A stretch of DNA of 64,000 bases, from the NCBI GenBank assembly GCA_028716725.1, contig JAQUPG010000002.1, positions 25,824 to 89,823 of the forward strand, read 5' to 3'. Origin of the DNA: Patescibacteria group bacterium. Its GTDB lineage: Bacteria > Patescibacteriota > Patescibacteriia > Patescibacteriales > JAQTRU01. The notes under the pieces are model-generated. The model was given only the letters and a program-made list of their open reading frames with translations. It made no database searches and was not told where the DNA came from. Position numbers and translations under genes: made by a program. Below are positions 1,795 through 38,068 of the stretch, one piece after another; position 1 is the stretch's first letter; every line of letters starts with the position of its first letter.

Positions 1795-1870
1795 TGGTGG
1801 ACCTGAGGAGACTTGAACTCCTTACCTTCGCAATGCGAATGCGACGCTCTACCAGATGAGCTACAGGCCC
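1795..1870 (-). tRNA. tRNA-Ala (anticodon CGC) with encoded CCA
   Basis: Reverse complement reads GGGCCTGTAGCTCA...TTCGCAT (anticodon loop)...GGTTCAAGTCTCCTCAGGTCCACCA. It has the G3:U70 Ala identity pair, a GGTTCAAGT T-loop and an anticodon CGC. Confidence 0.85.
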
Positions 1871-3674: not shown

Positions 3675-3796
3675 GGGTTAGCTAATTAGTTACTTAAAAA
3701 ATTAATTGATTATTTAGAAATTGGATATTGAAAATTGATTGAAAATTGATAATTGTAAACTGAAAATTGTTTACGTTATGCGTTATGCGTTCCACG

Positions 3797-4811: not shown

Positions 4812-4875
4812 CACCTCACCCCGTCGCTATCGCTCCTCCCCTCTCCTAATTAGGAGAGGGGTTGGGGGTGAGGTA
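4812..4875. repeat. GC-rich palindromic repeat, subfamily CCCCTCTCCT-AATT-AGGAGAGGGG...GGGGTGAGGT
   Basis: Near-perfect 60-nt palindrome centred on cctaattagg, intergenic between the DUF362 gene and cca. Related copies at 9737..9784 and 39511..39546. Confidence 0.6.
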
Positions 4876-4922: not shown

Positions 4923-6422
4923 TTATTTTACCCAAAATTCTCCCTTTAATTCTTTATCATCTTCCATTTTCTTTTCTTCAATTCTGCCTTTGGCTTTTTT
5001 CCTTAATTCGTCCAGCTCCATTTTATTCAACTCCTTGCTTCTTTTTTCCAGATATTTCTTATTATTCAATTCCGGGTCTTCAATCACTTCGGATAAAAGC
5101 ACGTCTAAAATCGCCCCGATTTTCGGCCCCGGAGTTATTTTCAGTAATTTTATTAAATCATCGCCGTTAATTTTAAGCATCTTGGCTGAAATCGGGTCTT
5201 TCCTGACTTTTTTCATCATATATTCAAGGTGCCGGAGTTTATAGGGTTTAGCCTTAGGCACGCCAGACCCGAGGCGGTCCGCCACCCGCAAATCGATTAA
5301 ATCAGCCAGGTTTTCCTCACCCACTTTTTTAATCAAGCGCCTGACCGAGGCTTCGGTTACTTCTCCGACATTATAATAAAACATATGGTGACGGATTAGA
5401 TTCGTTACCTTCTCCAAATCTTCGTTGGAAAATTTCAGGCGTTGCATTATTTTTTTAGCGATTTTAGCCCCGATAATGTCATGATTGTAAAAAGTGGCAT
5501 CTCCGCCGATAAACCTTTTGGCCTGCGGTTTGGCAATATCGTGAAGCAAAGAAGCGAATTTTACCCGCCAGTCCTTATTCGGGCAGTATTTTAAAGACAA
5601 AACCGAATGGTTAAAAACCGTGTAAATATGGTGCCGGTTCTGGTCAACCCCGACTCCCCGCTCCAGTTCCGGCAGGATATACTGCAATAATTTATTGTCA
5701 TGGAGAAACATTATTCCCTCATAAGCTTTATTGCTTTCCAAAATTTTTATGAGCTCATCGCGGATTCTTTCCTGAGAAACAAATTTAATCCCGCCCGCCA
5801 TTTTTTTTATGGCTCTTTCCGTCTTTGGCTCAATCGAAAAATCAAGCTGGCAGGAGAGTCTAATCGCCCGCATCATGCGCAAAGCGTCTTCCTTAAATCT
5901 GTCTTCCGGCTCCCCTACTGCCCGAATAATCTTTTTATCTAAATCTTTCCGCCCGCCGAACAAATCTACAATTTCAGCTTTATGACTAGCTACAGCATCT
6001 TTAAAATCCGAAATCCGAAATCCGAAATCCGAAATCCGAATTGCCATCGCATTTATCGTAAAATCCCGCCTCTCTAAATCTTTCTCTAAACTATCTTCAA
6101 ATCTAACCTCGTCCGGATGCCTGCGGTCGCTATAGCCCTGCTCGCTGCGGTAAGTGGTTATTTCTATGACGTCTTCGGTTTTATCCTCTTTATCCTTAAT
6201 CGGCACTAACACCGTACCAAACTTATTCTCATATTTACCTCCGGGGAAAACTTTCAAAACTTCCTCCGGCCGGGCCTTAGTAGTTACGTCCCAATCCCCC
6301 GGTTCTTTTCCCATTAATAAATCACGCACGCATCCACCTACAATATAGGCCGCAGAGCCCGCCTTTTCTAATTTTTCCGTTATTTCCTGAACATATCCCG
6401 GTATATTCATCTTCTTTTCCAT
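4923..6422 (-). CDS. cca: CCA-adding tRNA nucleotidyltransferase with C-terminal HD domain
   Basis: Head-domain motifs GGCVRDLLMG, DWDVTT and RRDFTINAMA. HD domain HHIYTVFNHS...LHDIAKP. Confidence 0.85.
   Translation of the reverse strand: MEKKMNIPGYVQEITEKLEKAGSAAYIVGGCVRDLLMGKEPGDWDVTTKARPEEVLKVFPGGKYENKFGTVLVPIKDKEDKTEDVIEITTYRSEQGYSDRRHPDEVRFEDSLEKDLERRDFTINAMAIRISDFGFRISDFKDAVASHKAEIVDLFGGRKDLDKKIIRAVGEPEDRFKEDALRMMRAIRLSCQLDFSIEPKTERAIKKMAGGIKFVSQERIRDELIKILESNKAYEGIMFLHDNKLLQYILPELERGVGVDQNRHHIYTVFNHSVLSLKYCPNKDWRVKFASLLHDIAKPQAKRFIGGDATFYNHDIIGAKIAKKIMQRLKFSNEDLEKVTNLIRHHMFYYNVGEVTEASVRRLIKKVGEENLADLIDLRVADRLGSGVPKAKPYKLRHLEYMMKKVRKDPISAKMLKINGDDLIKLLKITPGPKIGAILDVLLSEVIEDPELNNKKYLEKRSKELNKMELDELRKKAKGRIEEKKMEDDKELKGEFWVK
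6004..6038. repeat. (AAATCCG)x5 heptanucleotide tandem repeat inside the cca coding sequence
   Basis: Five perfect 7-nt units plus a partial unit (6003..6041). On the coding strand they encode RISDFGFRISDF within a loop after the RRDFTINAMA motif. Confidence 0.85.
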
Positions 6423-8725: not shown

Positions 8726-8899
8726 AATCTTAGTCTTAAAATATATAATAACTCAATAATCAAGAACCAATAATCAAACAATAATCAATAAATAATAAAC
8801 AAATGATACAAATAAAAAAATTTTAATAAAAAATAAGTTTGGTTATTAATTATTGAATTTTAGAATTTGTTTGGCTTTTGATTATTGATTATTTTACCC

Positions 8900-10642
8900 C
8901 TAACTTCTCTTTCTATAACTAGTATGCAGCACTTTATGTTCCAATTTACCCTGGCCTTCTAACCATTTTAAAACTTCTAAAACCCCCTTATTCTCATGGG
9001 CTTTTCTTATTTTTTTGCTTTTATCCAGCTTATACAAAGCAGCCGTTCTTTTTTTTCTGATTTCATCCGTGGTCGGAATCGGCTGGCCTCCCCCGCCAAT
9101 ACAACCGCCCGGACAGGCCATTACTTCAATATAGTCGTATTTATTTAGATTGGCTATGACCGGTTCTATATTGCCGATGCCGTTAACGACCGCCACTCTT
9201 AATTTTTTACCGGCCACGGGCACAATCGTTTCTTTCACCCCGTCCAGTCCGCGCACTTCTTTAAAATCAAGCCGGGTCGGGCAAATTTTTCTTTTATTTT
9301 TTCCGCAAGCTAAAAATTGGGCGGTGCGCAAGGCCGATTCCATCACTCCACCGCTGCCGCCGTAAATAACTCCGGCACCGCTATATTCCCCTAAAATATC
9401 ATCGGCTTTGGTCGGTTTTAATTTGGGGAAATTAATACGGTTCTTTTTTAAAAGCCAGGCCAGCTCCCTGGTGGTCAAAACGTAATCTACCGGGAAAAAT
9501 CCCTTTACTTTTAGTTCCGGACGCGTGGCCTCAAATTTTTTGGCGGTGCAAGGCATTACGGAAACGACTACAATATCTTTAGGGTTAATATTCATCTTAT
9601 CCGCCCAATAAGTTTTTACTATCCCGCCGAGATGAACATGGGGGCTACGGGCCGTAGTTAAATTGGGAATTAATTCCGGATGGTAAAACTCAACATATTT
9701 TACCCAAGCCGGGCAACAGGAGGTTATCATCGGCAACCTCTCCTCCCTTCCCCCTCCCCTAATTAGGGGAGGGTGGGGTGAGGTCTTTATTCGTTTCAAC
9801 AATTCTTCTGCTTCCACCATAGTCGTAACATCAGCCCCGAAACTAACATCAAAAATATAATTAAAACCAAGTTCTTTCAGGCCGGACACGATTTGACCGG
9901 TTAAAATTTCGCCATAAGCTAAATTAAATTCCTCGCCGATGCTTACCCGAATAGAAGGAGCAAATTGGGCGACAACAACTTTATTTTTGTTTTTCAGGGC
10001 TCTCTCCACCATTTCCCACTGGCTTTGTTCCTGGGCCGCCCCGACCGGGCAATGGACCGCGCATTGCCCGCAATAAATACAATCGATTTTTTTATCTTTA
10101 GTCGGCACTATCTCCTGGTCAATTCCCTTACCCTTCAACTCCAAATAATTAATATTTTGCAGAAGCGAACAGGCATCAAGGCAATTGCGGCAATCTATGC
10201 ATTGCGTGCCATCAATTTCCACGGCGTTGGCAAATTTATAAATTTTTCTTTTCCCCTTTCGGTCAGGAAAACGCTTTATTTCAATTTTATACCTTTCCGC
10301 CAAATCCAAAAGGCCACAATGCACATTCCAAATGCAAGTCGGGCATTTTTCAATATGTTCGGCAAAAATCAACTCAATATTTAAATTGCGCGATTTTTTA
10401 ACTCTTTCCGTATCAGTCCATATTTCCATGCCTTCCGCCACTGCCTTTTTGCAGGCTAGGGAAAGTTTTTTTCCTCCTTTAATCTCCACGACACAAATCC
10501 GGCAATTGCCTTTAATCGGAAAATCTGGATGGTGACAAAGTCCGGGAATGAATATCCCGTTTTCCCGCGCTACCTCCATGATAGTTCTACCGGGCAAACA
10601 ATTTATTTTTTTTCCGTTAATTTTTATTTCAATCTTTTTCAT
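8900..10642 (-). CDS. hydA: [FeFe]-hydrogenase catalytic subunit HydA (N-terminal 2Fe-2S and 4Fe-4S domains plus H-cluster domain)
   Basis: H-cluster motifs L1 TSCCPAW, L2 MPCTAKKFE and L3 EVMACPGGCIGGGGQP. N-terminal 2Fe-2S ferredoxin fold plus CxxCxxC clusters. Confidence 0.85.
   Translation of the reverse strand: MKKIEIKINGKKINCLPGRTIMEVARENGIFIPGLCHHPDFPIKGNCRICVVEIKGGKKLSLACKKAVAEGMEIWTDTERVKKSRNLNIELIFAEHIEKCPTCIWNVHCGLLDLAERYKIEIKRFPDRKGKRKIYKFANAVEIDGTQCIDCRNCLDACSLLQNINYLELKGKGIDQEIVPTKDKKIDCIYCGQCAVHCPVGAAQEQSQWEMVERALKNKNKVVVAQFAPSIRVSIGEEFNLAYGEILTGQIVSGLKELGFNYIFDVSFGADVTTMVEAEELLKRIKTSPHPPLIRGGGREERLPMITSCCPAWVKYVEFYHPELIPNLTTARSPHVHLGGIVKTYWADKMNINPKDIVVVSVMPCTAKKFEATRPELKVKGFFPVDYVLTTRELAWLLKKNRINFPKLKPTKADDILGEYSGAGVIYGGSGGVMESALRTAQFLACGKNKRKICPTRLDFKEVRGLDGVKETIVPVAGKKLRVAVVNGIGNIEPVIANLNKYDYIEVMACPGGCIGGGGQPIPTTDEIRKKRTAALYKLDKSKKIRKAHENKGVLEVLKWLEGQGKLEHKVLHTSYRKRS
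9737..9784. repeat. GC-rich palindromic repeat inserted in frame within hydA
   Basis: cctctcctcccttccccctcccctaattaggggagggtggggtgaggt. It encodes PHPPLIRGGGREER just upstream of the L1 motif and is a near-copy of the intergenic palindromes at 4812 and 39511. Confidence 0.6.
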
Positions 10643-12051: not shown

Positions 12052-12056
12052 CTAAT

Positions 12057-12085
12057 TTTCAATTTTCAATTTTCAATTTTCAATT
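12057..12085. repeat. (CAATTTT)x4 tandem repeat in the AT-rich region upstream of the hyd operon
   Basis: caattttcaattttcaattttcaatt read directly. Confidence 0.6.
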
Positions 12086-12165
12086 ATTTGAAAATTAAAA
12101 AATTAAAAATTGTTTGAAAATTAAAAATTAAGAATTAAACATTCTTATTAATCCTAATAAAAAAT

Positions 12166-25177: not shown

Positions 25178-25266
25178 AATGGATGGCGCATAACTTAAAT
25201 AACGTTTTAATTATAAAACGTTAATAGGCTACGCGGTTCGTATTATGCGAAAATAAATTCCACTAA

Positions 25267-25643
25267 TATCAGGGCAAGCTATAAGCCGGATTCTGTTTAA
25301 ATAGTCATCTATCTAGTTCCGAAGTTACCCTCGGAATCAAGCGAGCCACTTTTTTCCCGCTCAAATGCTTTAGCATTCTGGAGTGGGATTTGCTCTTGCT
25401 TCAGACAGGGTTTACCGCGTCACTCTGTTACCAGAGGACGATCCAAGTAGCGTAAATTAAACGGATATCCGAGATCAATTTACACACCCTGGAACTTTTC
25501 ACGTTTGGTCCCGATTGCTCGGGACTAGTATAGTCTCTGTGGCACTTTCCCTAAGATTACTCTTGGTGGGCATTACCCACTGCCTTTTTAATGAAGTCCG
25601 GACTTTCCTCCCGCCCAAATTTTTGGGCGATTGACTATCCACT
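25267..25643 (-). ncRNA. rnpB: RNase P RNA (bacterial type A)
   Basis: Minus-strand reading shows P4 5' strand AGGAAAGTCCGGAC, GGGTAATGCC, GTGCCACAGAGA and P4 3' strand ACAGAATCCGGCTTATAG. P1 pairs tcagggtaagt with agcttgccctga. The P3 hairpin is cgcccaaaaatttgggcg. Confidence 0.8.
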
Positions 25644-25858
25644 TACCCTGATATTATTGAAATTTAAAGGACTAATTATACGAATAACATAGCACTTGAT
25701 AACTTAAAAGTCAATAAATTTACTATATTATATTTAATTTTAGCCAAATTTACTAAAAATAAATAAATTAAAAACCTTGACAAATTATAAATTATATGAT
25801 ATAAAGGAATGTTCAACATGCACCTTCAAAACCGAGAAAAAAACAACGAAACTCAGAT

Positions 25859-29199: not shown

Positions 29200-29204
29200 A
29201 ATAT

Positions 29205-29330
29205 ATAAATTACAAATCCAAAATTATAAATTACAAATAATTTCAAAACTCTAAATTCAAAACTGTTTTGGATTTATGATTTTGGTCATTGTAATTTATT
29301 TGGAATTTGTGATTTTGAATTTTGGATTTT
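29205..29330. repeat. AT-rich imperfect inverted repeat (aaatccaaaa ... ttttggattt) between tgt and the next gene
   Basis: Long imperfect AT-rich palindrome read directly. Confidence 0.3.
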
Positions 29331-29331
29331 T

Positions 29332-36765: not shown

Positions 36766-36777
36766 AGAAATAATTTA

Positions 36778-36900
36778 AAATTTAAAAATCAAAATGTAAA
36801 ATTAAGGTATCGCGCTGCGCTCGCCTCGCTGAAGCTTCGGCGAAGCGGGCGCGATGAATTTTTAATTTTAAATTGTCATTTTGATTTTTGATTTTTACAT
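36778..36900. repeat. GC-rich hairpin (36808..36854, centred on gaagcttc) flanked by AT-rich inverted arms, in the parA-parB spacer
   Basis: atcgcgc...gcgcgat outer stem. The arms share aaaaatcaaaatg. It shares GCCTCGCTGAAG / CGAAGCGGG motifs with other GC elements. Confidence 0.45.
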
Positions 36901-36902
36901 TT

Positions 36903-37880: not shown

Positions 37881-37964
37881 AGCCCTGGTGGCGGAACTGG
37901 TAGACGCGCACGACTCAAAATCGTGTGGACGCAAGTCCATGAGAGTTCGATTCTCTCCCTGGGC
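37881..37964 (+). tRNA. tRNA-Leu (anticodon CAA), type II with long variable arm, no encoded CCA
   Basis: Anticodon stem-loop cacga-ctCAAaa-tcgtg, variable arm tggacgcaagtcca, T-arm gagag-ttcgatt-ctctc, acceptor gccctgg/cctgggc with one T-T mismatch. Confidence 0.8.
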
Positions 37965-38068
37965 ACGGATAATTTAAGATTTCAGATTCTAGAATTCAGA
38001 ATAAAAACAAACACAAAATCACAAGCCAAAACCAAGGGGGGGGTATTGGCTTTTTTGTTCATTGAGAA

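Follow-up and report, generated by a model that had tools for sequence, protein, structure and literature searches.

The window, that is, the whole stretch of DNA that we analysed, comprises 64,000 nucleotides of a Patescibacteria group bacterium (GenBank assembly GCA_028716725.1, contig JAQUPG010000002.1, positions 25,824 to 89,823 of the forward strand). We consider its cca gene, which encodes a CCA-adding tRNA nucleotidyltransferase, and a tandem repeat of a 7-nucleotide (nt) unit that lies within the coding sequence between two catalytic motifs. The features concerned, in window coordinates, are these:

4923..6422, minus strand: cca, class II CCA-adding tRNA nucleotidyltransferase with a C-terminal HD domain, 499 amino acids (aa); from the open reading frame (ORF) and Pfam
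6042..6071, minus strand: motif B, RRDFTINAMA, aa 118-127; from motif match and alignment
6004..6040, minus strand: perfect heptanucleotide array (CGGATTT)5.3, encoding RISDFGFRISDF; from direct reading, Tandem Repeats Finder (TRF) and shuffles
5970..6041, minus strand: variable insert between motifs B and C, aa 128-151, IRISDFGFRISDFKDAVASHKAEI, 24 aa; from alignment with PDB entry 6ibp, an AlphaFold2 (AF2) model and orthologues
5940..5969, minus strand: motif C, VDLFGGRKDL, aa 152-161; from motif match and alignment

Read directly, the window carries five full units of AAATCCG at 6004-6038, followed by 'AA'. TRF reports the tract at 6004-6040 with period 7, 5.3 copies, 100% matches, a score of 74 and the consensus AAATCCG. 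The preliminary description of this DNA had noticed a perfect AAATCCG repeat within cca, and it was right to do so, since the tract matches its consensus throughout and lies inside the ORF at 4923-6422; only its copy number, given there as 5.6, has to be lowered to 5.3, or five full units. The array is the longest exact non-triplet array of the window, in which exact arrays of at least 2.5 copies have periods of 4-7 only, and the only other period-7 array to reach three copies is intergenic (12054-12085). A 21-nt probe of three units matched the window once, at the array itself, and matched none of 100 dinucleotide-preserving shuffles. The identical array recurs in two NCBI metagenome-assembled genomes (MAGs) and, independently of these, in assemblies from JGI and ENA. 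An origin by chance or as an assembly artefact is already refuted by the shuffles and the independent assemblies, and we give it practically no weight.

On the gene strand the array reads (CGGATTT)5 and is translated as IRISDFGFRISDF directly after RRDFTINAMA, with three heptamers making up a peptide repeat of seven amino acids. Because the unit is not a multiple of three, as had been pointed out before, one or two units more or fewer bring a stop: the gene is in frame with 2, 5 or 8 copies, and is stopped at residue 135-148 with 3, 4, 6 or 7.

The enzyme around the array is otherwise intact. Pfam finds PF01743 (E = 1.9e-34), PF12627, PF13735 and PF01966 on the ORF, whose domains are a PolyA_pol head, an RNA-binding domain, tRNA_NucTran2_2 and HD. 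An identical protein from another Patescibacteria MAG (GCA_028712785.1, contig JAQTQT010000002.1) is named CCA tRNA nucleotidyltransferase by NCBI, and relatives of the protein are mostly labelled Candidatus Falkowbacteria. Catalytic motifs A (GGCVRD...DWD), B and C and the EDxxR template motif (D) are all present and conserved; in the ortholog alignment, R118, R119, D120, F121, T122, N124, A125 and A127 of motif B and D153, L154, F155, G156 and G157 of motif C are invariant. The protein scores below the NCBIfam equivalog cut-offs (279 bits compared with 439 for TIGR02692, and 259 compared with 290 for NF009814), and therefore represents a divergent lineage.

The best PDB matches are the CCA-adding enzymes 6ibp and 1miv, and the region that aligns with the flexible loop of 6ibp is present in the window enzyme. 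Between motif B and the IIDPFGG of motif C, the alignment opens a 17-residue gap in 6ibp; solved homologues are shorter by about 17 aa at this place. The AF2 model, built with 30 homologues, has a mean predicted local distance difference test score (pLDDT) of 79.5, and about 80 over the insert, which it flanks with beta-strands at residues 126-130 and 149-153. The alignment with 6ibp and the model thus bear out the earlier placement of the array in a loop after RRDFTINAMA, and put this loop between two beta-strands beyond motif B. Motif C has been described as a spring or hinge element (PMC11784652).

A tRNA whose gene does not encode the terminal CCA needs a CCA-adding enzyme for maturation. 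The tRNA-Ala gene of the window (1795-1870, minus strand) does encode CCA, as the preliminary description had stated, and the genes for tRNA-Pro (1222-1294) and tRNA-Leu (37882-37966) do not. Because two of the three tRNA genes of the window lack CCA, the enzyme is needed, unless a paralogue is present elsewhere in the genome; with the same proviso, the earlier view of cca as a gene that the cell needs is upheld.

We compared the segment between motifs B and C across cca loci sampled from species-representative genomes, metagenomes and individual look-ups. The relatives were ordered by average linkage, which is not a proper phylogeny. The fetched loci, L001-L165, yielded 163 loops, which collapse to 135 distinct orthologous motif B-C segments with lengths of 7-42 aa. 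Loops of at least 14 aa were considered long, an exact heptamer array was required to have at least 2.5 copies, and 430 length-matched segments from the same genes served as controls.

The motif B-C loop of cca is a hotspot in Candidatus Falkowbacteria. The strongest DNA autocorrelation was at lag 7 in 59 of the 86 distinct long loops, compared with 27 of the 430 controls. Exact heptamer arrays were present in 35 of the 86 long loops, and exact arrays of other periods from 4 to 12 in none of them. Per kilobase, there are 5.27 exact heptamer arrays in the loop, 0.019 in other ORF sequence and 0.144 outside ORFs. The loop arrays are built from 29 different canonical heptamer units, mostly AT-rich; examples are (CAGATTT)5 in L002, L084 and L085, about ten copies of (CTCGCAA) in L095, (GAATTAC)4 in L099, (CAATTTT)4 in L022 and (GATTGCC)4 in L088. 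In L023, L033, L086 and L095 the loop is a hairpin of two complementary arrays, and another 14 long loops contain GC-rich palindromes, translated as ...PPLLIRRGE... or ...PLLKGG.... Lineages with short loops (7-12 aa) are interspersed among those with long ones, and one clade has a stable 9-aa loop, L[DN]PxxPxx[IV], with no repeats. A comparison of loop length with relatives had been proposed at the outset; it reveals a highly variable segment, not a static old insertion.

A second hairpin of the cca head domain, after FGTVLVP, contains in-frame (CAGGAAA)5 in L095 (1189-1223) and (AGGAATA)n in L045 (3282-3301).

Heptamer arrays are also common in the non-coding DNA of the window. The commonest TRF period in the window is 7, and the autocorrelation of intergenic DNA peaks at lag 7 (0.328, compared with about 0.30 at neighbouring lags), with no such peak in coding DNA; tandem 7-nt units are over-represented relative to other periods, mainly between genes. 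Several spacers 3' of genes fold as long hairpins of complementary heptamer arrays (8726-8899, 12052-12165, 29200-29331 and 36766-36902, the last with a GC-rich palindrome at its centre), and these intergenic hairpins may serve as terminators. The window and the cca loops share a repeat vocabulary: the array units at 3774 (CGTTATG), 12054 (AATTTTC), 29207 (AAATTAC) and 37972 (ATTTCAG) recur in the loops of L033, L086 and L133, of L022, of L126, and of L002 and L084, respectively, in matches that for AT-rich units are partly expected by chance. In-frame heptamer arrays occur in unrelated ORFs of relatives too.

Short GC-rich palindromes are the other component of this repeat population, and two of them require separate mention:

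4837..4874, minus strand: GC-rich nested palindromic element ACCTCACCCCCAACCCCTCTCCTAATTAGGAGAGGGGA, 38 nt, in the spacer directly 3' of cca; from a match to L093
9749..9784, minus strand: in-frame 12-aa palindrome insert TSPHPPLIRGGG in a [FeFe]-hydrogenase HydA-like gene (8900-10642); from a match to the palindrome family

The first of these is identical to the in-frame motif B-C loop insert of L093, where it is translated as TSPPTPLLIRRGE. GC-rich palindromes of the form CCCCTCTCCT..AGGAGAGGGG are found at 4838, 9752, 27985, 31363, 31437, 39511, 54305 and 62313, in spacers at all of these sites except 9752. They form a multi-copy, dispersed family in an otherwise AT-rich genome. The hydrogenase insert directly precedes the H-cluster motif PMITSCCP and has no counterpart in HydA1 of PDB entry 8a6t. 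In other words, palindromes stand in frame in conserved proteins and are polymorphic for presence among orthologues, as in the hydrogenase compared with 8a6t and in the cca genes of L093, L006 and L163 compared with L083.

Structures of this kind raise the question of a function in the nucleic acid itself: the loop could be an element in the DNA or in the cca mRNA, for example acting as an attenuator or processing site, or mimicking the enzyme's substrate in autoregulation. The complementary-array hairpins in the loops of L023, L033, L086 and L095, and the same structures in the spacers 3' of genes, speak for such an element. However, the loop region of the window folds no better than shuffled sequence (z = -0.69), which led us to reject an RNA-structure function for the window's own loop. 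The sequences and structures at this site are also very diverse across relatives, and many arrays have no complementary arm. We therefore regard a nucleic-acid element as very improbable.

Heptamer arrays also lie next to tRNA genes in the window. The array that begins at 37972, (ATTTCAG)4.1, runs to 38000 directly 3' of tRNA-Leu, and (CTAAAAG)2.6 at 1870-1887 adjoins the 5' end of the minus-strand tRNA-Ala gene. A class A bacterial RNase P RNA (25266-25650, minus strand, 214 bits) is an ordinary feature of the region.

The history of the array can be followed among close relatives. The clade of the window consists of the window, L164, L083, L163, L002/L082, L084, L085 and the cluster members P0003, P0121-P0125, P0127-P0130 and P0141; P0121 and P0130 are fragments truncated at an end. 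All of these sequences have five units, although nucleotide identity in the flanks is only 81-88%. In the array, L164 does not differ from the window. Between the window and L083, the array shows no differences at 35 positions and the rest of the loop shows nine at 34 (Fisher p = 0.0009), with flanks 81-87% identical. In L002, L084 and L085 all five units read CAGATTT instead of the CGGATTT of the window; specifically, L002 and L084 differ from the window at five places in the array, each of them position 2 of a unit. Five parallel unit changes are impossible by independent substitutions, and they indicate concerted evolution of all five units by slippage or conversion.

Units are also gained or lost. 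The more distant L089 has five units, degenerate at one position, and L165 has the same loop with two units instead of five, an exact difference of 21 nt. Because this difference is of three units, the reading frame is kept in both. Palindromes enter the array as well. In L163, unit 4 of (CGGATTT)5 is interrupted, without loss of frame, by a GC-rich palindrome of 30 nt; the closely related L083 has no such insertion. The whole loop can differ, too. Proteins that are only 2-8% diverged outside the loop bear unrelated loops (L040/L043, L133/L142/L158 and L083/L086). Downstream of the loop, L083 and L086 share 99.4% identity over 990 nt, but upstream only 85%, a pattern that suggests a mosaic with its breakpoint at the loop, produced by recombination or possibly by chimeric assembly. 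In short, the insert is not static, and appears to evolve by slippage and homogenisation.

Such turnover could be taken as a sign of adaptive protein diversification, in which variability of the loop is itself selected, for example as an escape from a phage or host factor that binds the enzyme. The loop does turn over far faster than the rest of the protein, long loops persist in many lineages, and the hotspot is strongly site-specific. What fills the loop, however, is the non-coding repeats of the genome, with no conserved peptide; loops of 7-12 aa are interspersed among the long ones, and a whole clade keeps its stable 9-aa loop. No partner or antagonist of the loop is known. Selected diversification is therefore unlikely in our view. 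We also rejected a diversity-generating retroelement, because the variation consists of whole-repeat replacement and not of adenine-specific substitution, a judgement made from the pattern, with no search for a reverse transcriptase.

The preliminary description had proposed that the array is a phase-variation switch. In its strongest form, this would make cca a contingency locus, in which frequent slipped-strand mispairing of one unit would switch the gene on and off, or convert full-length enzyme to split enzyme and back, in a reversible and adaptive way. A perfect non-triplet repeat in which most changes of copy number introduce a stop is what such a locus requires, and the homogenisation of five units shows that slippage or conversion does act on the array. 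We therefore looked for out-of-frame alleles. None of the 163 loops from L001-L165 was out of frame; five apparent misses proved to be motif variants that were in frame. For six short cluster members that were candidate frameshift products (P0121, P0126, P0130, P0134, P0138 and P0139) contig ends explain the truncation, and the sequence of L162 starts inside its array. In the clade of the window, no out-of-frame allele was found among the loci, among the clusters or in a search with the N-terminal 135 aa.

The N-terminal search did recover split or truncated cca alleles in more distant relatives, and these were always broken in this loop. In L166 (1907-3357) the gene is split into ORFs of 145 and 345 aa by a frameshift inside (ATTACCA)4, and the C-terminal ORF is complete. 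In L169 (1794-3363) and L170 the frameshift lies inside three copies of a palindromic repeat of about 38 nt and leaves 166 and 367 aa; the C-terminal ORF is complete in L169. L171 (467-1251) has a frameshift in a palindrome insert, with the downstream frame open as far as the contig reaches. In all four, the split cca consists of two overlapping ORFs. Three others, L167 (2501-3746), L168 (1264-1757) and L172 (278-832), are remnants of the cca head that end at a heptamer array and continue into unrelated DNA. The unit of the L167 array recurs, as a short array, in the FemAB-like frame downstream. L168 is the exception that is of the type of the window clade: its (CAGATTT)5 array gives way to unrelated DNA 74 nt short of the contig end, which could be a rearrangement or a chimeric contig. 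Taken together, L167, L168 and L172 suggest that arrays are rearrangement breakpoints, or else that the contigs are chimeric.

The existence of these alleles means that the repeats carry a genuine risk of mutation and that a gene in an out-of-frame state can become abundant. The split alleles themselves could reflect recent damage, errors of assembly, a reversible OFF state or an enzyme that works in two pieces. For a switch they count in so far as the relatives' genes are split in this very loop with the C-terminal ORF intact, in L166 within (ATTACCA)4 and in L169/L170, and L171 is likewise open downstream, up to its contig end.

Nevertheless, several observations speak against the array of the window as a contingency locus. 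Its five copies are few, and they are constant in the clade across 81-100% flank identity. A sixth lineage, L089, retains five degenerate units. The three-unit, in-frame difference between L089 and L165 is the sole length variant seen; the out-of-frame alleles elsewhere carry other arrays. A proven switch looks different: the neuO gene, with an in-ORF heptanucleotide repeat, has 3-53 copies, most commonly 20, and is out of frame in 66% of genomes (PMC13001214). The tract here has 5.3 copies; those of the hmw promoters, also known heptanucleotide switches, have 13-38. The class of the gene is also wrong, in that cca is neither surface-exposed nor a restriction-modification gene, and the tRNA-Pro and tRNA-Leu of the window require CCA addition. 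Thus, of the traits of a contingency locus, the frame-shifting non-triplet repeat is present, but no out-of-frame close strain was found, and the gene, barring a second nucleotidyltransferase elsewhere in the genome, is not a dispensable or accessory one. A contingency locus is therefore improbable, and the proposed switch is not borne out in the clade. The preliminary description had itself named an old fixed insertion, uniform in copy number and degenerate in relatives, as the finding that would tell against a switch; read depth aside, the copy number is indeed uniform in the clade and the units of L089 are degenerate, but the turnover described above does not fit an insertion that has merely stayed in place.

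Comparison with neuO (the phase-variable O-acetyltransferase of the CUS-3 prophage in Escherichia coli K1, with (AAGACTC)n) is instructive. In both genes a heptanucleotide repeat lies within the coding sequence, full-length protein is made only at one residue class of the copy number modulo 3, and the repeat is read as a 7-aa repeat (PMC13001214). Unlike neuO, which is accessory, modifies the cell surface and is out of frame in most genomes, cca has five copies, fixed across the clade, in the catalytic head domain of a needed housekeeping enzyme.

The explanation that we favour, with a probability of roughly 70%, is that the array is an insert prone to slippage, selfish or mutational in origin, drawn from a genome-wide repeat population into a permissive loop and kept in frame by selection. 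Under this explanation the array would be an in-frame non-triplet microsatellite at the permissive tip of a beta-hairpin that links motif B to motif C in an enzyme that is otherwise intact. The loop would be filled repeatedly by the repeats of the spacers, that is, by tandem heptamer arrays, often as complementary hairpins, and by short GC-rich palindromes. An array once established would turn over rapidly through replication slippage and homogenisation of its units, gaining or losing three units at a time; palindromes would insert nested within arrays, and lineages would recombine at the loop. Purifying selection on a needed enzyme would remove out-of-frame states, so that loops are seen almost always in frame. 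The sequences themselves show the anatomy of the locus, the hotspot, the repeat vocabulary common to loop and spacers, the joint change of five units, the 21-nt indel and the polymorphism of insertions; we infer slippage as the mechanism, near-neutrality of the encoded peptide and lethality of the frameshifted state.

Several observations weigh against this explanation. The loop is about 280-fold hotter than other coding DNA, for which permissiveness alone is insufficient, and the second hairpin of the head domain is only rarely hit by arrays. The sampling was centred on cca loci, with other hotspots outside its reach. The array is perfect (0 of 35) at 13-18% divergence of its flanks, which could reflect selection on the repeat itself. 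Finally, frameshifted states can reach assembly-level abundance, as in L166, L169/L170 and L171. A more speculative account would invoke an uncharacterised process, mobile or hypermutational, with a preference for arrays and hairpins that are already there; it would make the loop a self-perpetuating hypervariable cassette in a needed enzyme, with full-length, split and OFF states side by side in natural populations. We consider this doubtful. If it were true, the cca genes split at the loop would be functional two-piece enzymes or reversible OFF states.

By analogy, the loop insert of cca probably behaves as in-frame Rickettsia palindromic elements (RPEs) do, combined with the behaviour of heptameric intergenic simple sequence repeats (SSRs). 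RPEs are selfish palindromes that have entered protein-coding genes without breaking the reading frame (PMC10969869). As with RPEs, the palindromes here are dispersed between genes and also stand in frame in conserved enzymes, where they are compatible with the fold and vary in presence or absence (PMC10969869). RPEs, however, are about 100-150 bp long, fall into defined families and belong to an alphaproteobacterium, whereas the elements here are 20-50 nt long, are accompanied by heptamer arrays and share one recurrent site; the likeness is one of mode of existence.

The heptameric SSRs (STRR) of Nostoc, Calothrix and Xanthomonas are likewise over-represented between genes, variable in length and sequence among close relatives and sometimes arranged as inverted arrays with the potential to form stem-loops (PMC4692102). 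They differ in being G-rich (GGGAATC or GGGGAYT) and in having been described as intergenic, whereas the arrays here are mostly AT-rich, use many different units and are translated inside an enzyme. The 29 loop units are distinct from those of the STRR or G-rich families in the literature. Polymerase slippage has been put forward, as a hypothesis, to account for the excess of heptamers. Elhai et al. reportedly described, in 2008, small dispersed repeats (SDR) of Nostoc punctiforme, about 21-27 nt long and apparently mobile, that are nested in repeats including heptameric arrays. The palindrome of 30 nt that sits within unit 4 in L163 resembles them, but belongs to a different phylum and has a different sequence; its mobility is suggested by presence and absence only, with no transposase linked to it, for which no search was made. 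A literature search for heptanucleotide repeats or in-frame palindromes in Patescibacteria or the Candidate Phyla Radiation (CPR) returned nothing relevant.

As a rule, a non-triplet microsatellite is either eliminated from an essential gene or, in an accessory gene, put to use as a switch. In the present case, a whole lineage of a candidate phylum tolerates varied non-triplet arrays beside the catalytic core of its tRNA-finishing enzyme. The array offers a clear instance of a coding microsatellite that evolves in concert, and the loop is a natural experiment that marks a permissive insertion site, possibly also a split site, in class II CCA-adding enzymes. Annotators should be aware that, at cca, both assembly and gene calling are disrupted by heptamer arrays. 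More generally, these findings are evidence of RPE-like and STRR-like repeat populations in Patescibacteria that reshape their proteins.

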